Shown here piece after piece: positions 10,314 through 27,180 of a stretch of 58,314 bases of DNA. The notes under the pieces were generated by a model. The model searched no databases. It was not told the origin of the DNA and saw nothing but the letters and a program-made list of their open reading frames with translations. This stretch comes from a virus: positions 1-58,314 of the IMG/VR virus record IMGVR_UViG_3300017694_000094, one strand, 5' to 3'. Each line of letters starts with the position of its first letter. The first letter of the stretch is position 1. A program made the position numbers and the translations under genes.

Positions 10314-10666
10314 TGCCGATCAGACCAGAGAACGCAAAGCGCTATCCGCCTCGCAGCGTGTGGCGAGCAATGGTCGAAGCAGCGCGGGAGCGCGGCGGCA
10401 ACCGCTGCGAGTGCGACGGCAAATGCGGACAAGACCATCCCGGCGGGCGGTGCAACGTAGAGAACGGCAAGCCCCATCCTGACACCGGCTCTACCGTCGT
10501 CCTCACGCTCGCTCACCAGCATGGTGTGCCGCTGGAGGAAACGAGCATAGATCGCATGTTCCACGCCTGCCAGCGCTGTCACAACCGCTACGATGCCCCG
10601 ATGCGCCGACGAGGCATCCAAGAACGCGCTCGCGCTGCCGCCGCGGCTGGGGATCTGTTTCCATGA
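10313..10666 (+). CDS. His-Me finger (HNH-like) nuclease candidate
   Basis: Start MPIRPEN (TGATG overlap). Has CECDGKCG...H...LAHQH...CQRCHNRYD, a Cys/His layout typical of HNH. Confidence 0.5.
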   Translation: MPIRPENAKRYPPRSVWRAMVEAARERGGNRCECDGKCGQDHPGGRCNVENGKPHPDTGSTVVLTLAHQHGVPLEETSIDRMFHACQRCHNRYDAPMRRRGIQERARAAAAAGDLFP

Positions 10667-12039: not shown

Positions 12040-12071
12040 GCAGCCCCTGCGGTCACGGTCGCAGGGGCTGC
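12040..12071. terminator. convergent (bidirectional) terminator hairpin
   Basis: Perfect 12-bp stem GCAGCCCCTGCG / CGCAGGGGCTGC with an 8-nt loop, between the convergent gene ends. It overlaps the last codons of the giant ORF. Confidence 0.6.
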
Positions 12072-15000
12072 TTGATCGCCTTGATGTAGACCGAATTGAA
12101 CGCGGTAATCGTCCGCTTCTCGGCGTCCGTGACCTTCGCCATACGCTCGGCATAGGTGGCGGCGTCGATCTTCTTCTGATCCCTCGCCAGTTCCAGCCCG
12201 TTGCGCGCCTTGCGCACCTCCGACATGGTTTTCCGCGCCGCCTTCGCCGCGCCGATCAGGCCAACGGTCGGCTTCTCTTCCGCGATATACGCCCGCGCCG
12301 CCGCCACGCCGCTGCGCTGCGCATAGCTTTTCGCGTTGTCGACCACGCCCTCGACCTCTTCGAGCCGAGCATAGAACGCGGACTTGTCGTACCATGCCGG
12401 CTTCTTGCCGATCACCTTGCGAGCCAGCGGGATGTCGTTGACGCCCAGCACCGTCTCGGGGTCGCCGTCTGCCAGCTTCAGCGGCGCGGCCAGAGTCCGG
12501 TCCACGAACGCGCCCGCGCCGCCGGTGACCATCCCGAACAGATATTCCAGCGTCTCGGGCGACACGTCGACCGCGCCCGCGACAACCTCGTCGCCGCCGG
12601 TGCCGACGTTCAGCAAATCGGTGACGCCCTTCCAGACCGGGTTGACGTTATTCCAATAGCGCTGATTGTCCGGCTCCTTCGGGCCGAAGGGCGTGTCGTT
12701 CGGCATGATCGGGCGGCCGGCGTAATCCTTGTTCAGCGTCAGGTCGACGACCGGATCAGCGAACGTCGGCGAGATCATGTTCAGCAGGCTCCCCGAGCCG
12801 ATCGGGTTGAACGCCTCGAAGAACGCCATCAGCGCGTCGGTCGCGACGGTCATCGGCCGGTCGCCCTTGGCCCCCCGCACGATGCTCCGGCCCAGCGTGT
12901 GGAAGGCGTTGTACCCCCACGGCATCGGCAGCTTCAGGTACTCTCCCCACGGCCCCTTGACCATGAGGATCATGTTGCGGCTCTTCTCGAACTCGCCCAG
13001 CTTCTCGTACACTGGCTCGCCGTCGTCGTCGTCCGGCGACAGCATGGTATTGAGCAATTCCTGAAGCGCTCCGGCCACGACGATCGCGCCGACCACCTTC
13101 TGCACCCGGCGGTTGCCGAGCGCGACCATCATACGCGCCGTGCCCTGGATGCTGGCGTTGTAGAACAGGTACAGCGCGTTCATCAGCACACCGTACTGGC
13201 CGCGGCGGTTGAAGTTGACCGTCAGATTCTTGGCGATGCTCGCCGCCTGTGGTGCCGATACGCCCGCCTGCCGCGCGTTCTTGTACGCCGACAGGCGGAT
13301 CGCGTTCTCGACGCCGGTGTTCAGCTTGTCGATGAAGCCATAGGCCGCCTTGATGTCGCTCATCGCGATCATGGCAAGCTGCTTCGGCGCGGTGTTGAGG
13401 CCGGTCGGGTTTGGTCGACGCTTCGGATCGAACCGCCGCTCCATCTCTTTCCGCAGCGTCTCCAGATCCTGCATCTGGTTGTACGACACGCGCCCGCCCT
13501 CGTCGGTGAACTCGCGCCACCACCGACCCCACTCGCCCGTCTCATTGCCGAACGCGCCGCGGGTCGCCGCCGCCATTGCCGCGCGCCAGTCCTTCAGCGT
13601 GCCGCGCTGTAGCCCCGGCACGTCGATGCCGGCGAGATTGACGCCCGCGGTCTGCACGTCGCGGAAGGCGTTCGTGATGATGAACTCGGGGTTGAGGCTG
13701 GTGTTGACCGACGACAGGAAGCGATTCCACTTCCCCAGGAAGACGAGCGCTTGGCTGGTCTTCTGCTCGTCGAGTCGACGCATTGCCTCCGCCAACCGCC
13801 GCGCCGCCGGGTTGGCCTTGTTCATGGTCACGCGGGCTTCCTTGCCCTCGATCTTCAGGCTGACCGTCCAGTCGGCATCCTCGCCGACCAGCGCGCGAAC
13901 CGGGTAGCTTTCCACGAACCCCGTGAGCGGGTTCATCTGCCGCTTCATGGTGACCTTGTTGACGGTCCAGAAGTCGGGGTCCGGCGACGCTTTCGCCAGA
14001 TCGTAGAACGCGCGCGCCACCTTGTTCTTCTCGCCGCGGACGATCGCTTCCTCCGCCTGCATGATCGAATGCGCGATGATGTCGTCGGCCATGCTGCGGC
14101 GACCGAAGGCCCGCTTCGATTCCGCGCCGCGCACCGTCAGGCCCATGCCTCCCGTGCTGCCGCGTTCGTTGGCGTTGTCGAGTTCGGCGAACCCGCGCAG
14201 GGGGACGTAGAACTCGTATGCACTGTCCCAGCTATCCGCCTGCTCTTCACTTAGGAGTCCAGCCTCACGGCGTTCGTTGCGCGCGAACTCCAGCATCCCG
14301 TACACGCGGTCCGCCACCCGCTCGAAAGCGTTGGTGCGGCCGGCGCGATCAATGCGCGCGAGGATCGCCGCTGCTTCAATGTCGCTCATACCGGAGCCGC
14401 TGCCATCGGCGAAATCGGGGTTGATGCTGGCGACGTGTGCGTTCCGCTCTGGCGCGTGCTTGGCGTACAGGAACGACTCCAGTTCGTCGGCGCTGACGCC
14501 CTCCGCTTCCATCGCCGCGAATAGCGGGTCGACGTGCGCGTCGGTCAGCCGTTCCATCTTCGCGCCGACACGGCCGGTCATCAACTCTTCCGCCAGATAC
14601 GGACGCTCGTCGTCACGCAACTCGCGGCCGATCACCCGCTCCACCGCCGCCTCGGCGCGCAGCGCGGGCAACATGCGGTCTTGAAGCCGGACGCGCCATG
14701 CGTCGACGCCCTCGCCCAGTCGCCCGACCAGCGTCTTCGCCGCTTCGGTCGCCTCGCTCACGGTCGCCGGGTTCGGCGCAGCCGCATCGCCCATGATGCT
14801 CTCGCGCGGCGCGCCGCCGGCCGCCTCGCCCTCGCGTGCGCCGATCGCGCCCCTGTCAATTTGGCGCATGATGTCGCCAGCCGTCTGCGTGCGCGTCACC
14901 AGCTGGCGGATTGCGGCGATGAAGTCGCGGATGCGGCCGAGCGCTGCACCCATGAAGCCGGTGCGGTTGCCCTGCCACTGCGCGAACATGATCGCGACAG

Positions 15001-18000
15001 CCTCTTCCGTCTGCCCCGCTTCGTCCAGGCTGCCGTAACGCTCCTTCACGCGCGCCATGATCTTGGCGTCGGCGCGTGCCGCCTTCTCCAGCGTGACCCA
15101 CTCCGCGCCGCGGAACAGGCCCATATCGCGCAGCGCGTGGACGAACTCATGGTGGAAGGTGGCGGTCGGGTCCGCGCCGTTGTCGAGCGCGACCGAGATG
15201 ACGCCGTTGAAATACATGCCGGCGACGCGGTTGTCGTTCAGCAGCGTGTTGACGGTCGAGATCACCAGCCGGTCACCGCTGATTCCCATCCGCTTCGCCT
15301 CAGCCGCCAGCTTCGCGCGGACGGCATCCATGTCCGCGCCTTCGCCCGCGGCCTCGTCCGTGACCGACAGCTTCGCGCCGTCCGGTAGCGGCGGCAAGGG
15401 CGCGTTCTTCGCCGACGCTTCCGCGGTAAGCTGGCTCTCGATCCGGTTGACGTTGCCCGCCAGTTCGTCGATCTCGGCCTGCCCCGCGAACGCCTTCTTG
15501 GTCTGCGGCGTGTATTCGGCGATGTCGGTCTTCGCCCGCTCGATCTTCCCGCGCGCGTCGGCGAGGTCGCTCTCGAAGCCGCGCAGCACCGCCGCCGCCG
15601 ACTGCGGGATACCGTCCGGCGTCTCCGCGCGGATGCGCTGCTGCTGCTCGCCATTGCGGTTGAGGTACAGCGTGACGGACGTATCCTTGCCGTACACGGC
15701 CACGTCGACCGTCAGCGGGAAGCCGCTGATCTCGGCGATCTTGCGGTCGCGTACCGTCGTCTTCTTCGCGGCCATTTCTTCCATGCGGTCGAGGATCGCC
15801 TGACCGAACTCGGCGCGGACCGTGTATTCGGTGCCGCCCACGGTCGCCTTGAAGTTGTCGCCGCTAATGTCTTGGCGCTGCGCGATGTCCTTCTCGATCT
15901 CGGGAATCGCCGCGTTCTGACGCTCGATCGTCTCTTCTGCCAGCCGCACCCGCTCGGCCGCCGCGAAGACACTGCGCTCGAACCCGGCCTTGCGCAGTTG
16001 CGCCCGCTCCAGATCCTGCCGGTACTGCGTCAGTTCGAGGATGCGCGGGTCGGCCGTCGTCAGCGCCTTCGCCTGCTCGTACTGGCTGGCCTCGCCCAGA
16101 TCGTCCATCGATCGCAGGGACGGGTCGCCGTTGAAGAACCCGTCGATGAAGCGCGCCTTCGTCTCCATCATCTGCCACATCGTGGAATCGTAGGTGCCCT
16201 TGGTCGAGTAATCGCGGATCTCGATCTCGGGGTTCATGTTGCCCTGGCGCAGCCCGCGCCCGTTCCGCTGCTCGTCGTTCGCGGGATACCACTGCGGGTC
16301 GAGGTTGTGGATCGCATAGAGGCGGCGCTGCGCGTTGACGCCCGTTCCCATCTTCGGAACGCTGCCGATCAGCACCCGCACCTTGCCTTCGTTCATGTCG
16401 TTGAACAGGCGCTGCCGTGCAACGCTGGTCTTGTAATCGGAGATGATCGCCACCTCCGAATCCTTCAGCCCGCCGGCGATCAGGCGCTGGCGGATATAGC
16501 GGTGGATCTGGAAGTCTCCGTTGATGCCGAGATCGGAGAAGATCATCTGAGTCGCCGGCCCGGTGAACGCTGGCGTGCTGGCGTAGCCGCCCGCTTCCGC
16601 CCGATAGAACGGCTTGGCCTTCGTCTCTTCGGCGATGCGCGAGACGCTATCGATCAGCATCTCCAGCTTCGATTGCTCGTCCTCGCGCAGCGCCGGATTG
16701 ACGAGGCGCATATCGATCGCGGCCTTGCGGCCGTCGCCGATGACGGACAGCAGGATGTCGTCGCCCTTCTTCGGCTTCCCGCGGCGCGCCTCGATCGCCT
16801 TCATGCGCGCGCCGAGCGTCTGCTGGTATTCCTGCAAGGCCGGCGTCGGCTCCGCGACGATCATCTGGCGGCTGCCGCCCTTCAGCTTCGGCCGCACCAC
16901 GTACTGCTCAAGCTGGCGGCTGGTCACCACGTCCATGACCTGCCGCACCATCGCGGACAATTCGGGCACGTTGACGAACTTGGCGAACCGGGTCTGCGGC
17001 TTGTAGCCGCCGGCCGGGTCTTGCTCCAGCGCGGTCACCGTCTCGCCGAACGCGCCGGCCCATGCGTCGAACTGCTCCAGCCCGCGCTCCGCCAATTCGC
17101 TCGCCTGCTGATAGCGCTGGAGGCTGAACAACTCCGCCATCGTGTTCGTGACCGGCGTGCCCGACGCCAGCACATGGCTCCGGCCGGGGTTCTGCTCTTC
17201 GAGGTAGCGGGTCTTGGCGAACAGGTCGTAACTCATCGCCGAGCCGTTGGGGTCGACGCCGCGGACGCTCCCCATCTTGGTCGCGAAGTCCAGCTTGCGA
17301 AACAGGTGGGCCTCGTCGACGAACAGGAAATCGATACCGGTTTCCTCGAACGTGAACACCTGATCGGCCCGCTTCTTGCGACCGCTCAGCTTCTGCGTCA
17401 TCGACTCGATCTGCTGTTCGATCCGGCTGACCGTGATCCGCTTGGACGGGTCGCTGCTCTTCTCGGCCTTCAACTCGTTCAGGATGCCGCGGAAATCGTC
17501 GATCTGCTTCTTCAGCAGCCGGTCGGCGAACGCATCGCTGACCGGGATGAAGCCGAACGCAGAATGCGTGATGATGACCGCATCCAGATCCTCGGTCGCC
17601 ATGTTGGCAACGAACTGCTTACGGCGGTCCGTGTGGAACTGGCGCTCGTCCGCAACCATGATCTTCGCGGTCGGGTACTGCTCGTAGAACTCCTTGGTGA
17701 ACTGGCCGAGCATATGGTTCGGCACCGCGTACATGGGTTTGCGCACCAGCCCGAGCCGGCGCATTTCCATGCCCGCGCCGATCATGGCGCTGGTCTTCCC
17801 CGCGCCAACCGCGTGGGCCATGTACGTGTTGCCGGCCTGGATGATGCGCGACACCACGCGCTTCTGGTGCGGACGCCATGACCACGACTCCGCGATGCCC
17901 GGCGTCGTCAGGTACGATCCGTCATAGGTCGGCGCGACAAGATTGTTATAGGACTCGTTGTAGAGTCCTACCAACTCTCCAGCCCGCTTGTCGTCGCTCC

Positions 18001-21000
18001 ACACCCACTCCGAGAACTTGGCGCGCATGTCGCGCACCTTGTCCTGCGCGGCCTGCGTCTCGACCGGGTTGATGACGCGCTGCTCTTTGCCATCGGCGTC
18101 GCGATAGGTGTCGTAGATGTTGGTCTGCTGGCGGTTGAGCGCATCGTTCAGCAACTCGATCGCGTTGCGCCGGCCGGTGCCCCATTCCGTCGTCGCCGCC
18201 GCGCCGTAGGCGTTGCCATGCACGGACCACTGCGCCAGCTTCGGGCGATAGACCGCGTTGACGTTGCTCAGCCCCAGCGATTCCGCGAACTGCTGGATCA
18301 CCGGCGCGGGGATCCACGGCATTCCCAGATTGGCCGAGATGTCGGACGGTCCCAGCAAAGCCGGCTGCACCGCTTCCAGCGCGGCGACGTTCCGCCGCAG
18401 GTCGGGGTCGCGTGCCGCCTCCGCGCGCGCCATGTCCAACTTCTGGCGCACGTTGCCGGACAGGTACTGCTCGCGGGTCTGGTACGTCTCGCCCTGCCCT
18501 GGCACCCGGAACACGCTATTGCCCAGGTCCTCCAGCGCCTGACTGCGCGAGATGCCCGCGCGATCGGCAATCTCGCTGAGGTCGGGGCGGCCGGTCCGAT
18601 TCAGGACGTACAGCAGCGCGTCGTTCGCCGAGCGGATCTCCGGCACCGTCTCTTGGCTGACGACGTTACGGAAGAAGATCGCGCCCTTCTGCGCCTCGCC
18701 GGTATCGTCGTTGTAATGCTCGATCGACCGGAGGCGGTAGCCTTCCTGATCGTCCATGAAGGCGTCCACGTTCGGGCGCTTCACGATTACCTTGTCGGGC
18801 ATCTCTGCCGGGTCGAAGTCGCCCTCGTCCCACTCGCGGCCGAGCGCCGCCGCCGTCTCGCGCGCCGCGCGCCGCGCCGCCGCGATCTCCGCCAGCTTGG
18901 CATTCGGGTCTTCCGGCGTGAAGCTGCCCTCGTTGAAGAACCCGCCGGCAAGCCGCGCCTCTTCGCGCGCCTGCGCTCGCGCCGATTCCTGCTCGATCAC
19001 GGACGGGCGCTGGTAGCGGATCTCGGCCTTATTGATCGGGCCGAACTGCTGCACGAAGCGATCGTAATTGCTGTTCAGTTCAGCGCGCGCCGCTGTCGCC
19101 GCCGCGGTGTTGCTCGCCAAGTCGGCGGACAGCACCTTGCGAAGAGAGTCCCGAATTGGGACGAGGGCGCGGATGCGCTCCTGATCCGCCGCGGGGATGC
19201 CGCCCTTCACGCCCTTGCCGCGGCCCTCGACCGGCGAGCCAAGCCCGCCGCGCTGCTGCATCAGGCGACCGTCGCTGCCGACGTAGAACGATCCTTCCTT
19301 GCGCTCCGTCGTCTCGGTGTCGAAGTCGGTGGCCGGGCCGGTCCACGCGGCAATCTGCGTGCGCTCGGCGACGCGCTGGAGCGCGGCCGGCAAATCCTTC
19401 GCCATGTCCTGCCCGTCGCGCAGTCGGACACCGTAGCGCTCGCCGGCCGTCAGCAGGTCGAATAGCCCCTGCTCGCCCAGCACCTGATCGGGGTTCTCGA
19501 CGAAGTAGCTGTTGACTGCCGTCTCCGCCGTGCCGCCGCTGCGGGTTGGGAGCATAACATCGGTCGTGCCGACCCACTGGCGCGGACCGGGCGCGGCACC
19601 GGCCTCGCGCTTCTTCAGCACGATGATATCGGTCGTCACGTCCGTGCCTGCGTTCTCGCGGAACGCACCGCCCGGCAGCCGCACCGCGCCGACCAGATCC
19701 GCGCGCTCCGCCATCCACGCGCGCGCCTTGTCGCTCACCTTGTTCATGGTGCCGGCGCTGGTCACGAACATCAGCAGACCACCCGGCCGCACCGCATCCA
19801 GGCTCTTCGCGAAGAAGAAGTCGTGCAGCACGAACCCGAGATTGCCGTAATTCGGATCAGATCGGACCACCGTCTGCGAGAACGGCGGGTTGCCGATGAC
19901 GAGATCGTAGGTGTCGCGCGGGAGAACCCCCTGCGTGAAATCCGCCTGCCGGATACCCGACTGCGGGTAGAGAAGCTGGGCGATACGTGCCGTGATGCCG
20001 TCGAACTCGACGCCCTGGTACTGCGATCGCGCGGCGATCTCCGCCGGCATCATGCCGAGGAAATTGCCCGTACCCATGCCCGGCTCGAACACCTTGCCGC
20101 CGGTGAAGCCCATAGCCCGCACGGCGTCCCACATCGGCCGGATGATCTGCTCGGACGTGTAGTGCGCGTACTGCACCGACCGGCGAGCGGTGTCGTATTC
20201 CTCGTCGGTCAGCAGTTCGCGGACGCGCGGGCCGATCTTCTCGAACCCCTTGGAATAGCCGGAGCCGGTGTCGCTGAAGGCGTTCTTCAGGCCGCCCCAG
20301 CCGACATACTTGGCAAGCGCCGCCTGCTGCTCGCGCGTTGCCGGCGCGCCGCTGGCGTCGAGTTCGCGAACGATCTCGATCGCGCGCACGTTGTCCCGCG
20401 CCTTCTGCGCCGCGCCGCGCGCCTCGTCGAGCGCGCCCGGCTCGATACGCCAGTTCTCGCCGGTTACCCGTTCTGCCGCGCTGTCTCGGGCACCATCTCG
20501 CCGTCCACGTCCGGCGTCGGCTGCTCGGGCGGGAACTCGATCAGCGTCGACCGCACCTGCTGCTCGATCTCCCTCCGGCGCGCGTCGTCCTTCATCAGCC
20601 CGTTCGGATGCGTCGCCTCGCCCGCGCTCAGATCCTTGAACATCTGACCGGCTTCCTTCGCCTTCGCTTGCAGGTGCGCGTCCATCGCTCCGCTCTTGCG
20701 CAGCTGGTTGAACATCCGCGGCGCTTGATCCCGCATCGCGGTCAGATACTGCTCCTTGATCTCCACGGCCTTCCTCCTCGATCTGCGCGGCGCTGCTCAT
20801 GTCGCGAGCAATGGCGTCCATGCCTGGGTAATAACGCGCCGACTCGTAGAACGAGCGCAGATAAGGGCGCACGCTCTCGCCGATGTCGGCCACCATGCGG
20901 CTGCTGAAGTCGGCGAACTTGCGCGCGCCGGCCTCGATATGGAACACCGCCAGTTCCGCGCCCAGCGCCAGCACCTCGGGATCGATGCCCGAATTGATCT

Positions 21001-24000
21001 GGCCCATCTTGGCGCGCAGCTTCTCACGCAGGATCGCAGCGCGATCCGTGGTCACCAGCTTGTTGGATGCGCCGTAGGTTGCCGTCTCTCCGGCTGCCAC
21101 GCCCTTCGATGCGTTAGCGGCGGAACCCTCGCCCCGGCCGGAAGCGACATTCTGCTGCGCGCTTTCCTGCGCCTGCGCGGCCGGCGCGTCAACCCGGACG
21201 ATCGTGCCGCTCTTCAGCCCCTGCTCGATCTCATAATTGTTGAGCGAAGACGCGCCACCTGTCTCCACGTTGCGAAAGAACGCGCTGCGCTGGCCGGGGC
21301 GGCCATCGACCTCATAGGTGGTGCTGGCACCTTCGCGGCCTAGATACCCGACCGGGGCAGTGAAGACGTAGCGCTCGCCGCCACGAACCCAAGGGTTCGG
21401 GTTTTTCTTGTCCGTTGCTCGGCGCAGGGACGGCTTAGCCGCCGGGGCCGGGGCTGGTGTGACGACGGCCGGAGCGGGCGGGTTGAACCGCGTCATCATC
21501 TCTTCGACCGCGCGCTGCATGGCCTCGGCCTTGCCGAACCCACCGCCCGCGCCAGCCCCGCCCAGCGCGAAGGACACGGGCGATCCATCGTCCTGCGTGC
21601 GGACCGTCCAGCCCCGCGGCGTTTGCTCGACCCACACGGTCTTCCCGTACTGGCCGTCATAGTCGAAGTGGACGCGATCGCCGTTGTTGATCGCGGTGCG
21701 GGCTTCGGCCAGCGTCTTTGCCTCAACCGTCTTGGGGGCGGCAGGCTGCGGCGCAGGATCGCGCGCGCCCTGCTTCGCGCGCTGGTCGGCACGCGCCGTA
21801 TCCATCAAGTCGGGTTGGCCGGCGTTGTTGTCGAACAGCCCACCGTCGCTGCCAGCGGCTTTCTGCGCGACCGTCGCGCGCGAGCGGCCTTCGCTCTGGC
21901 GTTCTAGCGCGCGGCGCTGGTCGCCTTCGCGCTCGCCGAATGCGTCCGCTTGTACTGGTCGATCTTCCTGAGTTGCCCGGCCAGCTTCGCCGCGTCCTTC
22001 TGCTGCGCTGGCGACAGGCGGGGATGACTCGAAGCCTTCGACATTGCCGAAATCAGCGGAGCGAGGGGCGTCTTCGTCGAACGGGATGTCGAACGCTGCG
22101 TCGTCGGTTTGCTCATAAAAGTCCTCGCTCCGTGCCTCCGCCTTGCCGCGGAAATAATCCTCGACCGCTTCGAGCGAAGAACGCCCGTCAGCCATATACG
22201 CCGCAACGCCGTCGATGTCCTCGGCGGTCGCGTCGGTGATCCCGTATTCCTCCAGCCCGCGCTCGGCGAACACGCGCGCGCCCTCGCGGTCCGTCTCGTC
22301 CTGCCGCGCCGCCTTGCGATCGGCCACGTCCGCGGCGTCCGCCGGGCGGTACTGGTTCTCGAACGCGGAGCGATCCAGCATGTCTATGACCTGCCGCGTC
22401 GTCGGCCGCTCTTGGAAGTAGCCCGCCTCCGCCAGCAGTTCGCCGGCCTCGTCGAGCGTCATGCCGTTCTTGCGGAAGACGTGCCCGCCGCCCGGCGCGA
22501 ACTGCGATAGGTCGCGACTGCCCGCGCCCTGGTTGCGCGAGCGACGCTTCAGCGCATGGCCTTCGTCGTCGCGGATGCCGCCGTTGCGAGCGAGAAAGGT
22601 GACCGCATCCACCGGCGCAGTATCGCGCGTAGCGCGCGGCTTGGCGGCGGGGGGCGCTTGCTCTGCGGCCTCAACACGGCTGACGAAAGCGTCGGTGCTT
22701 TCCACCGGGGTCCGCGTCAGGCCCACACGCTCGGCGCGTTCGCGAAGATTGCCAGCCGGCGGTGGGGTGTTCGGCGCGGCGGGCGCGCCCTGCGGGTCCA
22801 GCTTGTTCGTGATCTGCTCGATCGCTTCAGCCGCGCCCATCACGTCACGGTTGGGCGGGCGAACCGCGCGCACCTCCGCCGCCTCGCCCATGACAGCGGC
22901 ATACGCGCCTTCGAGATACGAGAGCCGCGGGTTCCAGCCGGAGCCGCCGCCTTCGCGTGCCTTTACGACCGTGGACTGGTGACGATCGCTGATCTCGTAA
23001 TCGAGAATTGCCTGCACGTTACCGGCCTTGCCGACGCTCCAGCCATTAACCAGATCCTGCGCAACGGGGCTTTCGCGATGCGGCAGATCGCCCAGCGCGC
23101 TGGTCGCTCGCTTGAACTCCGTCGACTTCCATACCTTCTTGAACGTCGCGTCGTCGACCGCCTCGGAGGTGACAGGTTCTGTCACCCTCGCGCCCTGCTT
23201 CCGCATCTGATCTGCGCGTCGCGCGACCGCGGCGGCTTCCTCGACCGGCATACCGCCGGACAAGGTATCGCTGACCGCCATCTGTTGCGGCGACTGCTCT
23301 GCGGCTGGAGTGCTGACAGGAGTGACGCTGGATAGCGCCGCTTCGATCTCGCCGCGATACTTCGCGCTGTAGACCTGCGAGCCATCCTTGTTCACGACCG
23401 CGCGCGCCTTCGGGACCGCCTGCGCGATAGCCGCAAGCTGCGCCTCCGATGCGCCAGCGACGGCGATACCCTTGCCGCTCGGCGTCTCGGTGATCGTCGG
23501 CATGGTGACCGGGGCGGCGGCTGGCGGCGACACGACAGGATCTGTCCTATCGGCGACGGGCGCGGCCAGCGGCGCGGCTGGTTCCACTGTGGCATCAGCG
23601 ACGGGGGCGGGTTCCTGCTCAACTGCTGACGACGTGTCAGCAGCGGCGGGCGCGGCCGGCAACTCGACCTGCGCCGTTGACAGCGGCTCGTCCAGCAGGC
23701 GCGAGCGCTCGGCTTCCTCGATTGGCGCGGGCGGGGCGGCGTCGGCGGCGGTGCCGGCGGTGGCCCCGCGCTGCCCGCCGATGTGGCGCGCAGTCCATTC
23801 CATCGCCTGCGCGTTCGTCATGCCGGCGAACTGCGGGTTCGCTTTCACGATCGCACGGTCGACCGCCGCCGTGGGGTTGCGCGACATGCTGAGCGCGCCG
23901 CCCAGGCCGAAGTGATGCGCGGCGTACAGCGAGGCGTCGTCGACCGGGATGCCCGCGCGCGTCAGGCCCGCGGCGTTCTCTTCGGTCATGGCCCGCATCA

Positions 24001-25690
24001 AGCGGTCCTGCACCTCGGGATCATTCTTCGCGCCGGCCGGCGGGGTGCCGCCATAGACCTTCTCGTAGTAGCGGGCGAAGGTGCTGTCCGTGAACTGGTA
24101 GCGGCCCGATGCGCTCGACCGGCTGTTCGCCGCCGCGTCATTGCCGCCGCTCTCCGCCTGACGTGCGCGCGCCATGTACGATGTCACACTGACCTTCCCC
24201 TTGCGGGGCGTCTGTGACACCGGCGCGGCGGCGGGTTCAGCTGCTGCGGGCGTCTCGCCGGTCTGCGCGATCGCTTCCAGCGTTGCGGCTGGGTCTAGCC
24301 CGCCCGCGCGCATGTCGGCCTCGGCCTGCGCCTGCTCGTCGGCGGTCGGCCCGGCAACCGGCGTCAGCGATACGCCCGCATCCTGCAAGTCGGCGAAGAA
24401 CTCCTTCATGGAGCCGCCGCCGTCCAGATCGATGTTCACGCCCGGCTGTGCGCCCAACTCCGCGTCGCTCTGGTCGACGAAGGCGTCGCGGATCGTGCCG
24501 GTGCGCTGCTTGCCGTTGATGGTGATCGATACGCGCGTGCCGACCTCGGGCGCGCCGTTCTGCGTGAGGATGCCGTTGGCCTCGGTCGTCGCGGTGCTTG
24601 CGCCCATGACGCGCTTGCCCTCGGCGATCAGGTCCGTGGGTAGCGGGCTGGCCGCATCCGCCTCGGTCACCGGGGCCGGCGTGGCTTCGGCTGCCTCGAT
24701 CACGCCCGGCGCGACGCGCTGGCCGCGCAACCGCCGCGCCACCGCGCCCGGCGTTTCCACCGCGCCGCGGATTGCGCCGCCCATGAAGCCGCCCGCGATC
24801 GCGCCTGCCGCCGCCTGATCCGCCGCTTCGCGCCAGTCGAACCCGGCGTCTGTGCCAAGGTTCGAGCCGGCATATTCCACCGGCGACTGGAGCGCTTCCG
24901 TCAACGCCTCCGCGCCGAACGCCTGCGCGATGCGGCCGGCGACGGACTTCGCGCCCGCGCCGAAGATCCCGTGGATGCCGAGCCGTTCGAGCGCGGCGCT
25001 GCCGACCGCGGCCGGCAGGGCGGCGAACACGTCGGCGGCGTCGGCGTCCGTCTCGCCGTTGTTCTGCGCGCGCTGCTGGCCGGTGCTGCCAGCCTGAAGG
25101 CCGATGTACGGCGCGAGGCCAGCGCCCGTTGCCAGCAGCCCCATGTCCGCCGCGGACGATGCGCCCTGCTCCAGCACGAAGCGCGCCAGTCCGCCGATCG
25201 TCGGGTTCTTTTTCAGCCCGTCCCACGTCTGCTCGCCCTCGATGGGGCGGTTGCTGTATTCCTCGGCGGATTGCGTCTTTGCGCGCAGCCACTGCGCCGC
25301 CTCGCCGTCAGGATCGATGCCGACCTCCGTCAGCCCGGTCAGCGCCAACCGTCCGCCGCCGGCACCCAGCCCGCGCACACGACGCCAGAAGGATTCGCCG
25401 ACCCGGCCGAGTTCGCTATCCGCCTCGATCGGCGCGACCGCGCGCTTCTCTGCCTGCTCGCGCGCGCGTGCTTCCTGCCGGCGTGGAGCGGTGTCGGCCT
25501 CGCGCACGGTGCGGGCGAACGTCTCGGCCGCCTGCTTCTGCGGCTTGCCGAACGATGTCAGATCGAAATTGCTCTTATCCGACACGTCCTTCGCGCCGAA
25601 CAGGTCGTCCATGACCGATACGCCGATTGGCTTGGCGGTGTCCCGCTTTGGTCCGAAGATGTCATCTACCAGCTTCGGACCAAGGGCCAT
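12053..25690 (-). CDS. giant polyvalent protein (4,545 codons): SLT + N6-adenine MTase + SNF2 helicase + HExxH + membrane C-terminal region
   Basis: Uninterrupted 13,638-nt ORF. ATG 25690 lies behind GGGAG. All motifs read in frame: ESGGN/SGRYQF (24060-24154), EPGMGTGNF (20060-20086), NPPF (19880-19891), GAGKT (17792-17806), DEAH (17306-17317), QRNGRGLRQGN (16238-16270), HEFVH (15137-15151). Confidence 0.85.
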   Translation of the reverse strand: MALGPKLVDDIFGPKRDTAKPIGVSVMDDLFGAKDVSDKSNFDLTSFGKPQKQAAETFARTVREADTAPRRQEARAREQAEKRAVAPIEADSELGRVGESFWRRVRGLGAGGGRLALTGLTEVGIDPDGEAAQWLRAKTQSAEEYSNRPIEGEQTWDGLKKNPTIGGLARFVLEQGASSAADMGLLATGAGLAPYIGLQAGSTGQQRAQNNGETDADAADVFAALPAAVGSAALERLGIHGIFGAGAKSVAGRIAQAFGAEALTEALQSPVEYAGSNLGTDAGFDWREAADQAAAGAIAGGFMGGAIRGAVETPGAVARRLRGQRVAPGVIEAAEATPAPVTEADAASPLPTDLIAEGKRVMGASTATTEANGILTQNGAPEVGTRVSITINGKQRTGTIRDAFVDQSDAELGAQPGVNIDLDGGGSMKEFFADLQDAGVSLTPVAGPTADEQAQAEADMRAGGLDPAATLEAIAQTGETPAAAEPAAAPVSQTPRKGKVSVTSYMARARQAESGGNDAAANSRSSASGRYQFTDSTFARYYEKVYGGTPPAGAKNDPEVQDRLMRAMTEENAAGLTRAGIPVDDASLYAAHHFGLGGALSMSRNPTAAVDRAIVKANPQFAGMTNAQAMEWTARHIGGQRGATAGTAADAAPPAPIEEAERSRLLDEPLSTAQVELPAAPAAADTSSAVEQEPAPVADATVEPAAPLAAPVADRTDPVVSPPAAAPVTMPTITETPSGKGIAVAGASEAQLAAIAQAVPKARAVVNKDGSQVYSAKYRGEIEAALSSVTPVSTPAAEQSPQQMAVSDTLSGGMPVEEAAAVARRADQMRKQGARVTEPVTSEAVDDATFKKVWKSTEFKRATSALGDLPHRESPVAQDLVNGWSVGKAGNVQAILDYEISDRHQSTVVKAREGGGSGWNPRLSYLEGAYAAVMGEAAEVRAVRPPNRDVMGAAEAIEQITNKLDPQGAPAAPNTPPPAGNLRERAERVGLTRTPVESTDAFVSRVEAAEQAPPAAKPRATRDTAPVDAVTFLARNGGIRDDEGHALKRRSRNQGAGSRDLSQFAPGGGHVFRKNGMTLDEAGELLAEAGYFQERPTTRQVIDMLDRSAFENQYRPADAADVADRKAARQDETDREGARVFAERGLEEYGITDATAEDIDGVAAYMADGRSSLEAVEDYFRGKAEARSEDFYEQTDDAAFDIPFDEDAPRSADFGNVEGFESSPPVASAAEGRGEAGRATQEDRPVQADAFGEREGDQRRALERQSEGRSRATVAQKAAGSDGGLFDNNAGQPDLMDTARADQRAKQGARDPAPQPAAPKTVEAKTLAEARTAINNGDRVHFDYDGQYGKTVWVEQTPRGWTVRTQDDGSPVSFALGGAGAGGGFGKAEAMQRAVEEMMTRFNPPAPAVVTPAPAPAAKPSLRRATDKKNPNPWVRGGERYVFTAPVGYLGREGASTTYEVDGRPGQRSAFFRNVETGGASSLNNYEIEQGLKSGTIVRVDAPAAQAQESAQQNVASGRGEGSAANASKGVAAGETATYGASNKLVTTDRAAILREKLRAKMGQINSGIDPEVLALGAELAVFHIEAGARKFADFSSRMVADIGESVRPYLRSFYESARYYPGMDAIARDMSSAAQIEEEGRGDQGAVSDRDAGSSAADVQPAAQERSDGRAPASEGEGSRSDVQGSERGRGDASERADEGRRAPEGDRAAGAVDADRVPARAADAGRGRRDGARDSAAERVTGENWRIEPGALDEARGAAQKARDNVRAIEIVRELDASGAPATREQQAALAKYVGWGGLKNAFSDTGSGYSKGFEKIGPRVRELLTDEEYDTARRSVQYAHYTSEQIIRPMWDAVRAMGFTGGKVFEPGMGTGNFLGMMPAEIAARSQYQGVEFDGITARIAQLLYPQSGIRQADFTQGVLPRDTYDLVIGNPPFSQTVVRSDPNYGNLGFVLHDFFFAKSLDAVRPGGLLMFVTSAGTMNKVSDKARAWMAERADLVGAVRLPGGAFRENAGTDVTTDIIVLKKREAGAAPGPRQWVGTTDVMLPTRSGGTAETAVNSYFVENPDQVLGEQGLFDLLTAGERYGVRLRDGQDMAKDLPAALQRVAERTQIAAWTGPATDFDTETTERKEGSFYVGSDGRLMQQRGGLGSPVEGRGKGVKGGIPAADQERIRALVPIRDSLRKVLSADLASNTAAATAARAELNSNYDRFVQQFGPINKAEIRYQRPSVIEQESARAQAREEARLAGGFFNEGSFTPEDPNAKLAEIAAARRAARETAAALGREWDEGDFDPAEMPDKVIVKRPNVDAFMDDQEGYRLRSIEHYNDDTGEAQKGAIFFRNVVSQETVPEIRSANDALLYVLNRTGRPDLSEIADRAGISRSQALEDLGNSVFRVPGQGETYQTREQYLSGNVRQKLDMARAEAARDPDLRRNVAALEAVQPALLGPSDISANLGMPWIPAPVIQQFAESLGLSNVNAVYRPKLAQWSVHGNAYGAAATTEWGTGRRNAIELLNDALNRQQTNIYDTYRDADGKEQRVINPVETQAAQDKVRDMRAKFSEWVWSDDKRAGELVGLYNESYNNLVAPTYDGSYLTTPGIAESWSWRPHQKRVVSRIIQAGNTYMAHAVGAGKTSAMIGAGMEMRRLGLVRKPMYAVPNHMLGQFTKEFYEQYPTAKIMVADERQFHTDRRKQFVANMATEDLDAVIITHSAFGFIPVSDAFADRLLKKQIDDFRGILNELKAEKSSDPSKRITVSRIEQQIESMTQKLSGRKKRADQVFTFEETGIDFLFVDEAHLFRKLDFATKMGSVRGVDPNGSAMSYDLFAKTRYLEEQNPGRSHVLASGTPVTNTMAELFSLQRYQQASELAERGLEQFDAWAGAFGETVTALEQDPAGGYKPQTRFAKFVNVPELSAMVRQVMDVVTSRQLEQYVVRPKLKGGSRQMIVAEPTPALQEYQQTLGARMKAIEARRGKPKKGDDILLSVIGDGRKAAIDMRLVNPALREDEQSKLEMLIDSVSRIAEETKAKPFYRAEAGGYASTPAFTGPATQMIFSDLGINGDFQIHRYIRQRLIAGGLKDSEVAIISDYKTSVARQRLFNDMNEGKVRVLIGSVPKMGTGVNAQRRLYAIHNLDPQWYPANDEQRNGRGLRQGNMNPEIEIRDYSTKGTYDSTMWQMMETKARFIDGFFNGDPSLRSMDDLGEASQYEQAKALTTADPRILELTQYRQDLERAQLRKAGFERSVFAAAERVRLAEETIERQNAAIPEIEKDIAQRQDISGDNFKATVGGTEYTVRAEFGQAILDRMEEMAAKKTTVRDRKIAEISGFPLTVDVAVYGKDTSVTLYLNRNGEQQQRIRAETPDGIPQSAAAVLRGFESDLADARGKIERAKTDIAEYTPQTKKAFAGQAEIDELAGNVNRIESQLTAEASAKNAPLPPLPDGAKLSVTDEAAGEGADMDAVRAKLAAEAKRMGISGDRLVISTVNTLLNDNRVAGMYFNGVISVALDNGADPTATFHHEFVHALRDMGLFRGAEWVTLEKAARADAKIMARVKERYGSLDEAGQTEEAVAIMFAQWQGNRTGFMGAALGRIRDFIAAIRQLVTRTQTAGDIMRQIDRGAIGAREGEAAGGAPRESIMGDAAAPNPATVSEATEAAKTLVGRLGEGVDAWRVRLQDRMLPALRAEAAVERVIGRELRDDERPYLAEELMTGRVGAKMERLTDAHVDPLFAAMEAEGVSADELESFLYAKHAPERNAHVASINPDFADGSGSGMSDIEAAAILARIDRAGRTNAFERVADRVYGMLEFARNERREAGLLSEEQADSWDSAYEFYVPLRGFAELDNANERGSTGGMGLTVRGAESKRAFGRRSMADDIIAHSIMQAEEAIVRGEKNKVARAFYDLAKASPDPDFWTVNKVTMKRQMNPLTGFVESYPVRALVGEDADWTVSLKIEGKEARVTMNKANPAARRLAEAMRRLDEQKTSQALVFLGKWNRFLSSVNTSLNPEFIITNAFRDVQTAGVNLAGIDVPGLQRGTLKDWRAAMAAATRGAFGNETGEWGRWWREFTDEGGRVSYNQMQDLETLRKEMERRFDPKRRPNPTGLNTAPKQLAMIAMSDIKAAYGFIDKLNTGVENAIRLSAYKNARQAGVSAPQAASIAKNLTVNFNRRGQYGVLMNALYLFYNASIQGTARMMVALGNRRVQKVVGAIVVAGALQELLNTMLSPDDDDGEPVYEKLGEFEKSRNMILMVKGPWGEYLKLPMPWGYNAFHTLGRSIVRGAKGDRPMTVATDALMAFFEAFNPIGSGSLLNMISPTFADPVVDLTLNKDYAGRPIMPNDTPFGPKEPDNQRYWNNVNPVWKGVTDLLNVGTGGDEVVAGAVDVSPETLEYLFGMVTGGAGAFVDRTLAAPLKLADGDPETVLGVNDIPLARKVIGKKPAWYDKSAFYARLEEVEGVVDNAKSYAQRSGVAAARAYIAEEKPTVGLIGAAKAARKTMSEVRKARNGLELARDQKKIDAATYAERMAKVTDAEKRTITAFNSVYIKAIKQPLRP
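13040..13200 (-). other. hydrophobic (putative transmembrane) segments in C-terminal region of giant protein
   Basis: GVLMNALYLFYNASIQGTARMMVALG and VVGAIVVAGALQELL read from the translation. Confidence 0.4.
14950..15330 (-). other. zincin-like HExxH module of giant protein
   Basis: ATFHHEFVHALRDMG at 15137-15151 (+/-). Domain extent is guessed. Confidence 0.45.
16150..17880 (-). other. SNF2-type helicase module of giant protein
   Basis: WRPHQKRVV, AVGAGKTSAM (Walker A), FLFVDEAHLFRKL (DEAH), LASGTPVTN, and the QRNGRGLRQGN arginine-finger motif. Confidence 0.75.
19600..20330 (-). other. N6-adenine DNA methyltransferase module of giant protein
   Basis: KYVGWGGLKNAF lead-in, motif I EPGMGTGNF, motif IV VIGNPPFSQT. 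Borders are approximate. Confidence 0.75.
20464..20766 (-). other. frame-discordant segment A: 100-codon alternative-frame ORF encoding a helical domain (nested gene or displaced part of giant protein)
   Basis: ORF track 20464..20766. About 90 of 101 codons end in G/C, while the giant frame here is about half A/T-ending and low-complexity. AGGAGG lies 6 nt before GTG 20766. TAA at 20464-20466. Confidence 0.55.
21904..22023 (-). other. frame-discordant segment B inside giant ORF (alternative frame ends at TAG 21904-21906)
   Basis: Coordinates congruent to 1 mod 3 are G/C in 18/20 (21961-22020) and 19/20 (21901-21960), against 9/20 and 12/20 for the giant-ORF third position. The alternative frame reads LSPAQQKDAAKLAGQLRKIDQYKRTH. 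Confidence 0.5.
23770..24178 (-). other. lytic transglycosylase (SLT-like) domain of giant protein
   Basis: AESGGNDAAANSRSSASGRYQFTDSTF...LYAAHHFG. The catalytic-Glu context is typical of SLT/phage transglycosylases. Domain borders are approximate. Confidence 0.7.
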
Positions 25691-25694: not shown

Positions 25695-26516
25695 CTAACT
25701 CCCTACGGCGCGGCGGATCATCGCCTTTGCCTCTTCGATCGGAATCTTCTTCCCGTTGCGGAAAAGCCCCGGATAGCGCTCTGGTGTGGCACCGCCGTAG
25801 CTGGTCAACAACTGGTCAATGCCGATGTCTACCTTGCTCCGCGTGCCCGCGCCAGCCCCAGCCGCGGCGGCAGGCTGATTACGCCAGCCCGCGGCAGGTG
25901 CCTTCTTCGGCTTGTCGGCCGGCTTGTCGGCGGTGGTATCGCCGCCCAGCCCGAGCGGATCATAGGCGGCCTTCTCCTTCGCCACGATGCCCGTGCCGTA
26001 GGTCTTCGTGTTGCCCTGCTTGTCGGCGAAGAACAGCACCTTCTCGCCGGTGTCGGCGTCGATCTCTTCGCCCACCTTGGAGAAGCCGTCCTTATCGGCG
26101 GCGAAGCGCGCGCTCATTTCCTTCTCGTATGCGATCTTGGCCTTGTCGTTGCCAAGCTGGATCGTGAGTTCCTTCAGCCGCTGCGCGTTCTCGATCTTGT
26201 TCTTTTCCTTCCACACGGCCAGCCCGCGCGCGTCATCGGCGGCGGCGGCGGACGCGCGGCCCTGCAATTCGATCTGGTTGTTCTCGCGGTTCACCAGCCC
26301 GCTCAACACGATCTCGCCGCGACGGTTCTGGTTCTGACGCTCGTCGCGCTCGCCCTGGATGTTGGCGCGGAACTGCTCCAGCGCGATCGCGCGTTGCGAC
26401 TGGCGCTCTTCCTGCTCCTGTACCATGCGCTGCTTGCCCTCCATCTGGAGGTAATCGCCATAGCCTTCAGCCGCGCCCGTGATTGCGCCCAGCAGTGATT
26501 TACCGAACCCCGCCAT
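25695..26516 (-). CDS. putative internal virion protein (273 aa, start MAGFGKSLLG)
   Basis: ATG 26516 lies behind GGGAGGG. Charged coiled-coil centre. The stop is 5 nt upstream of the giant-ORF start. Confidence 0.55.
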   Translation of the reverse strand: MAGFGKSLLGAITGAAEGYGDYLQMEGKQRMVQEQEERQSQRAIALEQFRANIQGERDERQNQNRRGEIVLSGLVNRENNQIELQGRASAAAADDARGLAVWKEKNKIENAQRLKELTIQLGNDKAKIAYEKEMSARFAADKDGFSKVGEEIDADTGEKVLFFADKQGNTKTYGTGIVAKEKAAYDPLGLGGDTTADKPADKPKKAPAAGWRNQPAAAAGAGAGTRSKVDIGIDQLLTSYGGATPERYPGLFRNGKKIPIEEAKAMIRRAVGS

Positions 26517-27180
26517 TGACCAACCCTCCCGACTGCGGCGGTGCCGCTGGTTCTTCCTCGGCCGCTGGCTCGCGCACCTCGGCGTTGTCGAGCGCCGGCA
26601 GCACGGAGCCAAGCCGCCCCTCCTTGTCCGCGGTCACGATCTCGTCGAACTGCGCCTTTAGCGCGGCATCGTCGACAAGGCCCTCCGATTCCGCCGTGGC
26701 GCGGTATAGGTCCAGCCCCATGAGCCACGCCTGATTGAGTTGGTCCTGCGAGTATTCCTGCTCGCCGGCCTTCTCGCCCAAGTCGGCGATGACTTCGAGG
26801 ATCTCCTTGCCGCCGTGCATCAGCACATCGTCCGCCGGCTTCTCTCCGCTCTGACGGATCGCTTCCAGCACGACGATAACTGTCGTCGCCGCCAGCGCGA
26901 GCGGCGGCGTGATGTTGTCAAACTGGCCTGCCTCGCCGAGAATCTGCTTGAGGTCGCTCGGGTCGTCATCCAGCAGGTCGAGGATGCTTTCGCCCTGGTC
27001 GGCAACCAGCTTCATCGCACCCTTCACGAACGCATCGTATTGCGCCTGCTCTTCGGGCGTCGCTTCCTCGCCCGCATCCTCGTTGTCGGACACGGTATCG
27101 GCCGCCTCCTGTGGCGTAGGGTTGGGCGGTGCCGCCTGCGCATTGCCCGGCGCTGGTGCCGCGCCCATCAATCCGGCCAT
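26500..27180 (-). CDS. acidic hypothetical protein (226 aa), internal-protein block
   Basis: ORF track. Asp/Glu-rich, protein-like. Confidence 0.6.
   Translation of the reverse strand: MAGLMGAAPAPGNAQAAPPNPTPQEAADTVSDNEDAGEEATPEEQAQYDAFVKGAMKLVADQGESILDLLDDDPSDLKQILGEAGQFDNITPPLALAATTVIVVLEAIRQSGEKPADDVLMHGGKEILEVIADLGEKAGEQEYSQDQLNQAWLMGLDLYRATAESEGLVDDAALKAQFDEIVTADKEGRLGSVLPALDNAEVREPAAEEEPAAPPQSGGLVNGGVR

Follow-up and report, generated by a model that had tools for sequence, protein, structure and literature searches.

Giant proteins in which a lytic transglycosylase, a methylase and a helicase share one chain have been known since 2011 from podophages of Burkholderia, Ralstonia and Agrobacterium. 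In phage JC1, gp69 is 4,515 amino acids (aa) long, takes up 22.1% of the genome and closes the virion module; it was detected with 51 unique peptides by mass spectrometry of CsCl-purified virions, and virion presence is also cited for the homologous Bcep22 protein (PMC9144972). CSP3 orf43, annotated as a "soluble lytic transglycosylase/helicase/methylase", represents 22.3% of its genome (PMC10269572), and Atu_ph08 gp21 is a homologue of 4,877 aa, described in a paper that notes the N-terminal lytic transglycosylase of the Bcep22 protein (PMC6630229). These three papers all cite Gill et al. 2011, the founder paper, which is considered here as they present it. The giant proteins also figure, as putative ejection proteins of very large size, in a list by Casjens and colleagues (PMC8402733). 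Iyer et al. 2017 set out the class of polyvalent proteins, with the LPD36-MTase-SWI2/SNF2 dyad, for which DarB of phage P1 is the archetype, a zincin-like metallopeptidase (MPTase) as a hub domain, and LPD38 plus lysozyme as phage-specific components of late-gene polyvalent proteins (PMC5512222). We analysed a viral DNA of 58,314 nucleotides (IMG/VR record IMGVR_UViG_3300017694_000094, positions 1 to 58,314; the whole stretch is hereafter called the window) and found that its giant gene, an open reading frame (ORF) of 4,545 codons at 12053-25690 on the minus strand, is another member of this class. We believe, with a probability of roughly 0.72, that its product is a virion-packaged, host-injected polyvalent protein of the DarB class, built like the injected RNA polymerase (RNAP) of phage N4 and bearing a different cargo. 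An earlier note, made from the letters of this DNA, knew of no such fusion; Bcep22 gp75, JC1 gp69, CSP3 orf43 and Atu_ph08 gp21 had in fact been published.

The ORF begins with an ATG at 25690 and ends at a stop codon at 12053-12055, while the second-longest ORF of the window encodes 820 aa. The two ends of the window are identical over about 123 bp (1-123 and 58192-58314), as in a circular-assembly overlap, and therefore the assembly is circular, the unique genome measures about 58,191 bp and the features at the ends are duplicated. The giant gene takes 23.4% of this genome, in agreement with the single 13.6-kb ORF covering about 23% that had been noted earlier. The motifs listed in the earlier note are likewise all present and in the order given: AESGGN (residue 512), SGRYQF (528), EPGMGTGNF (1869), NPPF (1934), GAGKT (2629), DEAH (2792), QRNGRG (3141) and HEFVH (3514). 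An ORF of this size could come from a chimeric assembly, or be open by mere chance in DNA rich in GC, since the 65% GC of the window favours long random frames and the giant gene is overlapped by many long antisense ones. However, with a stop-trinucleotide frequency of 0.018 in the window, 4,545 stop-free codons are expected by chance with P of about 1e-35, the GC content by codon position (0.68/0.49/0.85) follows a coding pattern along the whole gene, and the composition is uniform. Moreover, full-length collinear homologues exist with up to 61% identity (P0088, P0091, P0092, P0093, P0097, P0101 and P0106), with a syntenic neighbourhood on independent contigs. Judged by these collinear relatives, an artefact of either kind is already refuted, and we give it practically no credence. 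A Shine-Dalgarno sequence (GGGAG, 25699-25703, minus strand) stands 8 nt upstream of the ATG, and the TAG of the upstream gene (25695-25697) is only 4 nt from it, so that translation of the giant gene is coupled to the block before it. At the 3' end of the giant gene, we found no convincing terminator.

The part that relates the protein to DarB is its central core (this and all other features of the giant protein lie on the minus strand). PHROG 10089, "DarB-like antirestriction", covers aa ~1650-3455 with E-values (E) of 1e-88 to 2e-211. An N6-adenine DNA methyltransferase domain (aa 1843-2033; 19592-20164) carries motif I (EPGMGTGNF) and motif IV (NPPF), and was detected by the Pfam models N6_Mtase (21.4 bits, cutoff 20.4) and Eco57I (25.8 bits, cutoff 25.3) and by the PADLOC model mad2 (9.5e-15). 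It is followed by an inter-domain region (aa 2034-2603; 17882-19591) that is kept in the Bcep22-type proteins (phrog_10089, E=9.5e-165), and by a superfamily 2 (SF2), SWI2/SNF2-like helicase/translocase (aa 2604-3200; 16091-17881) with motifs I (GAGKT), II (DEAH) and VI (QRNGRGLRQG), for which the Pfam models ResIII (24.7 bits) and Helicase_C (23.5 bits) matched at their cutoffs and phrog_10089 gave E=2e-211. This helicase resembles the SNF2-like DrmD and DpdE in NCBIfam and PADLOC matches. Thus, both the methylase and the SNF2 helicase of the earlier reading are supported by Pfam, PADLOC and PHROG 10089. The core ends in a coiled-coil-rich region (aa 3201-3429; 15404-16090), delimited by the PHROG and CSP3 comparisons. 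On the other side of the methylase, a conserved region (aa 1541-1840; 20171-21070), interrupted by an Arg/Asp/Gly/Glu-rich low-complexity linker at aa ~1625-1770, is collinear with the Bcep22-type proteins and lies where Iyer et al. place LPD36; this is a match of position only, as the family scans of the giant protein gave no LPD36 model match and no LPD36-specific model was run.

The core proved to be a DarB homologue when compared directly with P1 DarB (2,255 aa): BLASTP aligned the two collinearly, with 27% identity in the methylase (E=4e-20) and 21% and 25% in the two halves of the helicase (E=1e-14 and 8e-13), so that the dyad of an EcoKI/TaqI-type adenine methylase and, C-terminal to it, an SF2 helicase of the SWI2/SNF2 type is common to both, with motifs I and VI conserved. 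In contrast, P1 DarB lacks the SLT domain, the N-terminal module, the MPTase domain and the LPD38 module in profile tests, the identity is merely 21-27%, and P1 is a myovirus. In CSP3 as here, motifs I and IV of the methylase and I, II and VI of the helicase remain intact, and the catalytic motifs of the core are conserved among relatives of about 40-60% identity. On the giant protein, NCBIfam gave only sub-threshold partial matches and no match to a "PLxRFG" model. The Pfam list of the closest relative (P0093, contigs L016/L017) includes PF28553 (WH_1), PF28554 (DUF8437) and PF28555 (Helicase_dom), and also InPase, and the DarB-like core may thus already have dedicated newer Pfam models. P1 DarB itself is packaged in the head and acts in cis to guard the incoming DNA against type I restriction (PMC5512222, PMC9144972); by analogy, antirestriction could be the specific function of the cargo here, a proposal to which we assign about even odds.

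Ahead of the core, the protein begins with a Gly/Ala-rich, all-helical bundle (N-module, aa 49-377, conserved core aa 94-324; 24560-25546) that many giant polyvalent proteins have at their N-terminus, followed by a small beta-domain (aa 386-444; 24359-24535) which an AlphaFold 2 (AF2) model depicts with a per-residue confidence (pLDDT) above 90. Next comes a lytic transglycosylase of the GH23/phiKZ gp144-like type (aa 502-637; 23780-24187), with Glu513 in the AES motif as the putative catalytic residue. Three lines of evidence uphold the N-terminal SLT domain of the earlier note, which Pfam left below cutoff. First, phrog_4067 ("transglycosylase") matches with E=7e-14; second, phmmer aligns aa 510-610 with phiKZ gp144 (3bkh) at E=0.006, Glu513 falling on the Glu of the IES motif of gp144; and third, the AlphaFold model of aa 41-720 (pLDDT 81) has 3bkh as its top PDB match in Foldseek (probability 1.0, root-mean-square deviation 2.9 A, 150 columns), with Slt, Cj0843, MltE and Slt70 below it. 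The hidden Markov model (HMM) of this SLT domain, taken out of a global alignment of very long sequences, missed a Pfam-SLT protein in the related contig L003, and we attribute this to alignment quality or to a different SLT subfamily. The earlier note also compared the protein with T7 gp16. The likeness stands in so far as gp16 is internal, is ejected and has a GH23 lytic transglycosylase at its N-terminus, and the generic E-S...G-x-x-Q-F-T motifs align. A relationship in sequence is not significant (hhalign probability 0.9%), and gp16 is devoid of DNA-modifying domains, which leaves an analogy only.

Between the transglycosylase and the core lies a poorly conserved, partly disordered region of about 900 aa (aa 640-1540; 21071-23773). 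It contains Ala/Pro-rich and acidic linkers of low hydrophobicity (for example aa 1215-1343), two lineage-specific stretches (aa 817-1010 and 1334-1500) and a conserved island (aa 1011-1333; 21692-22660). The region gave no family match in Pfam, PHROG, NCBIfam or PADLOC and no structure match; phmmer against PDB sequences found nothing for the island, for aa 1501-1840 or for the methylase-helicase core. A word-indexed search had returned only 8 partial matches for aa 1-1540, as if the N-terminus were nearly an orphan; this was overturned by an exhaustive HMMER search with aa 1-720, which yielded 3,115 matches, many of them in proteins of 2,300-5,535 aa.

Behind the core, the HExxH site noted earlier (HEFVH) turned out to be part of a conserved zincin-like MPTase domain (aa 3451-3614; 14849-15340; HExxH...E), as judged from conservation and from the order of secondary structures in the AF2 model. 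In an alignment of 18 sequences, the residues H3514, E3515 and E3563 are invariant, and H3518 almost so; this combination is the signature of gluzincins, and the model shows a helix, three strands, the HExxH helix and a Glu-bearing helix, that is, the topology of the zincin core of Iyer et al. (PMC5512222). The HMM of this domain finds CSP3 residues 3554-3697 with E=8e-12, and the profile gives weak matches to an IrrE peptidase (E=0.014) and to residues 2172-2306, in domain C1, of the N4 virion RNA polymerase (vRNAP; E of about 1e-3 to 0.07), while the Pfam MPTase model has no match on the giant protein. The chain ends in a mostly helical C-module of about 880 aa (aa 3665-4545; 12056-14698), with the strongly conserved motifs HAPERN, YVPLRGF, NPEF, RLSAYKN and NLTVNFN, inside which LPD38 (PF18857; aa 4226-4421; 12428-13015) is recognised by Pfam at E=1e-36 with the whole protein and at 3.2e-38 with the segment. 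The presence of SLT, methylase, helicase, MPTase and LPD38 in one ORF within a structural operon bears out the designation as a polyvalent protein. The earlier note had read hydrophobic segments in the last ~1,000 residues and a membrane tail. Hydropathy does not agree with either, as it yields a single marginal peak (aa 4199-4217, Kyte-Doolittle 1.67), and the C-terminal ~880 aa look like a soluble helical module with LPD38. The model of the C-module is mostly helical (pLDDT 80.8, predicted template modelling score 0.72). When a C-terminal model of 1,116 aa was compared by Foldseek with the PDB, no structural relative was found (best E=0.57) in a library that reaches April 2026 and may lack the 2026 N4 gp50 entries; among predicted viral structures, the C-module had 78 confident matches, all of them C-terminal pieces of polyvalent proteins. 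PHROGs 14770, 616 and 10691 match it better than PHROG 10089 does.

We then compared this architecture with those of the Bcep22-like (Lessievirus) and related giants, i.e. Bcep22 gp75, BcepIL02, DC1, JC1 gp69, CSP3 orf43 and the Ralstonia Gervaise-type proteins (PHROG 10089). By tblastn against GenBank phages, the core was found in 176 records labelled "DarB-like antirestriction protein" or "soluble lytic transglycosylase/helicase/methylase", including Burkholderia Bcep22, BcepIL02, BcepMigl, DC1, JC1 and CSP3, about 30 Ralstonia phages, Klebsiella SopranoGao and LASTA ("PLxRFG protein") and Ochrobactrum POI1126. With the Bcep22 type the protein shares one ORF of ~4,500-4,650 aa that takes ~22-23% of a ~60-kb podophage genome at the end of the virion module, a lytic transglycosylase domain not far from the N-terminus, and an acetyltransferase plus small virion proteins encoded upstream. 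The alignment with CSP3 gives 39% identity over aa 1541-2219, 43% over 2314-3429 and 28% over 3669-4424, and the C-module HMM finds CSP3 residues 3758-4645 with E=4.5e-170. In contrast, no BLAST high-scoring pair with CSP3 precedes aa 1541, so that the first ~1,540 aa are not alignable, and neither the N-module nor the SLT HMM matches CSP3. The MltE-type transglycosylase N-terminus of the Bcep22 family is not shared, the SLT fold here being of the phiKZ gp144 type, and the virion block is devoid of a PAPS reductase. The phage backbone differs as well: the portal is nearest to those of Pseudoalteromonas, Pasteurella, Roseobacter and Pelagibacter podophages, with no more than 35% identity, and there is no close genome in the GenBank phage collection. 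The phage is therefore not a Lessievirus. The head variant described here is common in metagenomes and differs from the Bcep22 type, and it is absent from the descriptions given in the JC1, CSP3, Atu_ph08 and Iyer et al. papers.

The relatives differ mostly in what they carry between their ends. The complete architecture is present in at least seven metagenomic cluster representatives, the nearest (P0093) showing 61% identity over 77% of the protein and four others 47-49% over about 80%. Many relatives keep the N-module, the SLT, the HExxH domain and the C-module and have no methylase-helicase, and some bear other cargo (InPase, ART). In some, head and tail are two genes, as in L003, where the gene of a 2,302-aa protein with SLT and InPase precedes that of a 1,576-aa LPD38 protein. 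As for the C-module by itself, it was found in 337 phage records, with the Stx-converting 933W-like phages and Ruegeria phage 45A6 among them. In Stx2 phage 86 gp35 (2,783 aa, "LPD5 domain-containing protein") and in 45A6 (3,912 aa) it is about 33-35% identical (HMM, E of about 1e-260), and in the Stx phages and 45A6 the giant gene is the last one of the structural module. The MPTase is shared with 45A6 too. The N-terminal and cargo regions of gp35 and 45A6 are different; in gp35, the N-module and MPTase profiles had no match and only the C-module was found, the cargo region being outside these tests. Taken together, these sequences show head and tail as a conserved chassis whose cargo can be exchanged, the DarB dyad being one such cargo.

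The same distribution could mean that the giant protein is in essence a structural ejection device (an ejectosome, channel or internal core), in which the N-module, SLT, MPTase and C-module would be essential, while the methylase-helicase would be dispensable and would matter little for infection. The relatives that keep head and tail with no methylase-helicase or with InPase or ART, and the spread of the C-module to 337 records including Stx phages, would fit such a device, as would the co-conservation of neighbouring Gly-rich membrane-like and coiled-coil proteins and the lack of other recognisable ejection proteins in the window. Nevertheless, the cargo retains intact catalytic motifs in relatives of ~40-60% identity, which argues for selection on the enzyme function, and an ejection role is compatible with an injected DarB-class protein rather than exclusive of it. 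We regard a purely structural role as unlikely.

The proposed resemblance to the N4 injected polymerase concerns the order of the parts and the ends of the chain. According to a structure of 2026, N4 gp50 is made up of a lipid-binding N-terminal domain (NTD) that inserts into nanodiscs, a low-complexity linker of ~100 residues, the RNAP, and a C-terminal domain divided into C1 (HExxH) and C2 (~110 kDa, helical, without structural relatives), and in the model of that study it is stored in the capsid as "beads-on-a-string" and ejected through a conduit of the neighbouring gp51 and gp52, with the NTD remaining anchored in the inner membrane (PMC13434306). Gp50 (3,500 aa) and the protein described here thus have the same order, i.e. 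an N-terminal helical module, low-complexity linkers, enzymatic cargo, an HExxH domain and a helical C-terminus; both C-terminal helical parts measure ~900-1,100 aa and have no structural relatives, and both genes adjoin small ejection-protein genes, those here being candidates. They differ in that the cargo is an RNAP in one and a methylase-helicase in the other, and in that gp50 has no SLT domain. The HMM of the N4 RNAP had no match among 226 collected relatives, a run that did not include the giant protein itself, and the Pfam and NCBIfam scans of the latter showed no RNAP family.

Profiles of the N4 domains were built from eight N4-like vRNAPs and compared by hhalign. The N-module matched the N4 NTD with 92% probability in a forced-global run (E=8e-8, 382 columns) and with 91% in a local one (E=1e-6, aa ~254-319 on N4 381-451), while for the RNAP, C1 and C2 domains, taken as controls, P was about 0.8-0.9. 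Relatives collected through the SLT region (P0145 and P0153) are matched by the N4-NTD HMM with E of about 1e-16, and five proteins (P0053-57) have an N4-NTD-like N-terminus plus a C-module of the giant-protein type (E=2e-7 to 7e-9); a profile of these bridging proteins gave 96% to the N4 NTD and 91% to the N-module. Independently of hhalign, PHROG 2206 (vRNAP) weakly matches aa 200-373 (E=7e-5), its only match on the giant protein. We consider it probable, albeit unproven, that the N-module is homologous to part of the lipid-binding N4 NTD (residues ~316-451). For the MPTase and N4 C1, hhalign gave E=2.8e-4, above the controls, which suggests a weak homology. Iyer et al. recovered no relatives of the N4 N-terminal region outside N4-like phages and linked the giants only through the HExxH domain (PMC5512222), and our literature search found no paper drawing the connection through the N4 NTD. 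On this basis, we tentatively propose, at slightly less than even odds, that the DarB-like giants, the LPD38 giants of Stx and Ruegeria phages and the N4 vRNAP are built on one ancestral podophage "protein-injection carrier". In such a carrier, an N4 NTD-like lipid-binding helical module would lead the chain out of the capsid and anchor at the inner membrane, the C-terminal end would consist of the HExxH domain and a large helical encapsidation or regulatory domain (the LPD38 module or N4 C2), and any enzymatic cargo (RNAP, methylase-helicase, InPase, ART or RelA/SpoT) would be spliced between these ends.

For the phage studied here, we propose the following course of infection. The protein would be synthesised late from the structural operon, alongside five conserved small partner proteins, and a few copies would be stored in the capsid as "beads on a string" joined by flexible linkers. 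At infection it would leave through the short tail with the N-terminus leading, the N-module would associate with the inner membrane and the ejection conduit, and the lytic transglycosylase would cut peptidoglycan locally. The methylase-SF2 translocase core would then reach the cytoplasm and act in cis on the entering phage DNA, which would be methylated or otherwise shielded from host restriction, mainly of type I, as with P1 DarB. The HExxH zincin domain and the LPD38 C-module would form the conserved tail, probably with roles in encapsidation and/or autoprocessing and in cargo regulation. The sequence itself shows the ORF, the homologies and folds of its domains, the intact catalytic motifs, the order of the genes, the conserved module of six genes and the exchange of cargo. 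That the protein is packaged, in which order it is ejected, that it counters restriction and what its MPTase and C-module do is what we infer for this phage, the corresponding facts being known only for homologues: virion presence for JC1 and Bcep22, antirestriction for P1 DarB, and membrane binding and ejection for the N4 NTD.

Several observations weigh against this proposal. Packaging and a role in infection are deduced for this giant protein from genes alone, and antirestriction has been demonstrated solely for P1 DarB, which is 21-27% identical. The Pfam scores of the methylase and helicase are merely at the cutoffs, and for the transglycosylase the whole-protein Pfam scan found nothing, while a segment scan left SLT and Transglycosylas below theirs. 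In P1, DarA, Hdf, DdrA and Ulx are needed for packaging or function of DarB, and when DarA, DdrA, DdrB, Hdf and Ulx were searched against the window by tblastn, none of the five matched at E<=0.01. The link to the N4 NTD comes from profile-profile alignments of 66-117 columns built on small alignments, and the N4 NTD profile HMM does not match the giant protein when run directly on it. N4 gp51 and gp52 have no detectable homologues in the window, and neither do T7 gp13-16, for which BLASTP, tblastn and hhalign were all non-significant. The C-module gave no profile match to PDB sequences, full-length gp50 included, and an hhalign probability of only 3.8% with N4 C2. Having no detectable likeness to C2 or to any solved structure, the C-module can be given a role only as a guess.

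A different fate of the chain would follow if the HExxH peptidase cut the SLT, the methylase-helicase and the C-module apart, either in the capsid or after entry, so that the 4,545-aa polypeptide would be a polyprotein that never acts as one unit. The invariant gluzincin residues suggest an active peptidase, autoprocessing was proposed by Iyer et al. and P1 DdrB is processed (PMC5512222), the modules are separated by long low-complexity linkers, and head and tail are encoded separately in L003. However, the N4 vRNAP, which bears an HExxH domain of this kind, stays uncut both when packaged and when purified (PMC5512222, PMC13434306), there are no known cleavage sites, and the mass spectrometry of JC1 virions is silent on cleavage (PMC9144972). 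We therefore find the polyprotein rather doubtful and retain the packaged and injected protein as the preferred explanation.

The genes around the giant one speak for a virion function. On the minus strand they run in the order TerL ATPase fragment, two ORFs without assignment, TerL nuclease fragment, portal (752 aa), scaffold-like gene, major capsid protein (332 aa), a protein of 820 aa, tail fibre (490 aa), five small genes and the giant gene, which is thus, as had been noted earlier, the last of the virion-gene block; it lies downstream of TerL, portal, major capsid protein and tail fibre. This order is unlike that of T7, in that the tail-fibre gene is upstream of the block and there are no gp13-15 homologues. 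One may ask whether the product is a non-packaged late cytoplasmic enzyme, such as a replication- or modification-linked methylase-helicase that merely happens to lie beside structural genes, considering that packaging in this phage is only deduced and that the Atu_ph08 authors mention their homologue in a replication context (PMC6630229). We think this very unlikely. The giant gene is translationally coupled to the virion-gene block, a peptidoglycan-cleaving domain would be useless in the cytoplasm of the producing cell, homologues are present in purified virions (PMC9144972), and LPD38 and lysozyme domains are confined to phage-type, late-gene polyvalent proteins (PMC5512222).

The five small genes (all on the minus strand) are conserved in the same order, with 37-60% identity, directly upstream of the giant gene in the contig of its closest relative (L016), and two of them are also conserved in L003. 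The first encodes a Gln/Ala-rich coiled-coil protein of 410 aa (28571-29803; 46% identity in L016) with internal repeats of the form SAQEAAQLS-LE-QRA-AT--QQ-R-IDAQMQRL, and the second a GNAT acetyltransferase of 168 aa (28068-28574; phrog_1249, E=5e-18; 50% identity in L016). The third product (299 aa; 27184-28083), 50% identical in L016 where it also lies beside the giant gene, is a hydrophobic, extremely Gly/Ala-rich protein that consists almost wholly of Gly, Ala, Val and Ser residues and has an amphipathic helix at its N-terminus as well as hydrophobic runs resembling glycine zippers; it received no family assignment in our scans and is a candidate membrane-active ejection protein. It is followed by an acidic protein of 226 aa (26500-27180; 60% identity in L016 and 47% in L003) and by a partner of ~273 aa (25695-26516; 37% identity in L016). 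The ORF of the latter was called from 26612 (305 aa), and conservation with L016 begins at Met33 (MAGFGKSLLG..., 26516), the first 32 residues being Arg/Cys-rich and resembling non-coding read-through; the gene thus probably starts at Met33, which would remove a 113-nt overlap with the 226-aa gene. Taken together, the conserved six-gene module of five small genes plus the giant gene is a reasonable candidate for the ejection machinery.

Some other features of the genome deserve mention. The large terminase is split at the ATPase/nuclease boundary (43156-49104, minus strand) into a Terminase_6N ATPase ORF of 296 aa with its own stop (48214-49104) and a separate nuclease ORF of 244 aa with its own ATG (43156-43890). 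The ~4.3 kb between them hold two same-strand ORFs without Pfam or PHROG match, one of 392 aa with a signal-peptide-like N-terminus (46786-47964) and one of 805 aa with a fibre- or tailspike-like composition (43890-46307). In 396 of 420 related phage records a single place covers at least 80% of the concatenated TerL query, and most of the matches listed are in a single piece, so that TerL is normally one gene; in Xanthomonas phage DES1 it is in two pieces too. No Rfam intron was found at the split, nor any Rfam family in the window, and the arrangement may reflect either a two-subunit TerL or an unrecognised intervening element. A DUF2303 protein is encoded at 5726-6742 (minus strand; Pfam E=2e-40), of a family also present in the related contig L002; its homologue JC1 gp10 was unexpectedly detected in virions by mass spectrometry (PMC9144972). 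A protein with a crAss001_48-related C-terminal domain lies at 49947-50729 (minus strand; E=1.7e-15), and an ERF-family recombinase (E=5e-14) and an HNH endonuclease (phrog_1571, E=7e-21) at 8598-9293 and 10148-10666, respectively, on the plus strand. No integrase was found among the subset of window ORFs that was scanned, and the window has no tRNA.

Since fusions of this kind were already on record, the value of the present one lies not in its existence and rather in the module map, the chassis/cargo pattern and a testable link to the N4 ejection model. It adds an example from a different podophage backbone to a class that has been described and never dissected experimentally, and whose members each occupy, as single proteins, about one fifth of the genome and presumably bring activities against the cell wall and against restriction into the host along with the DNA. 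The map reaches residue level, with E513, NPPF at 1934, K2633 (GAGKT), DEAH at 2792 and H3514/E3515/E3563 as catalytic residues, and the six-gene module nominates partner ejection proteins. The most worthwhile target is the ~880-aa C-module with LPD38, which occurs in hundreds of phages, Stx-converting ones included, and has no solved structure. The probable homology of the head to the lipid-binding N4 vRNAP NTD ties these proteins to an experimentally grounded model of ejection and, if the shared carrier is true, homology would extend to the ejection end and the N4 structural model would become transferable to a much larger class.

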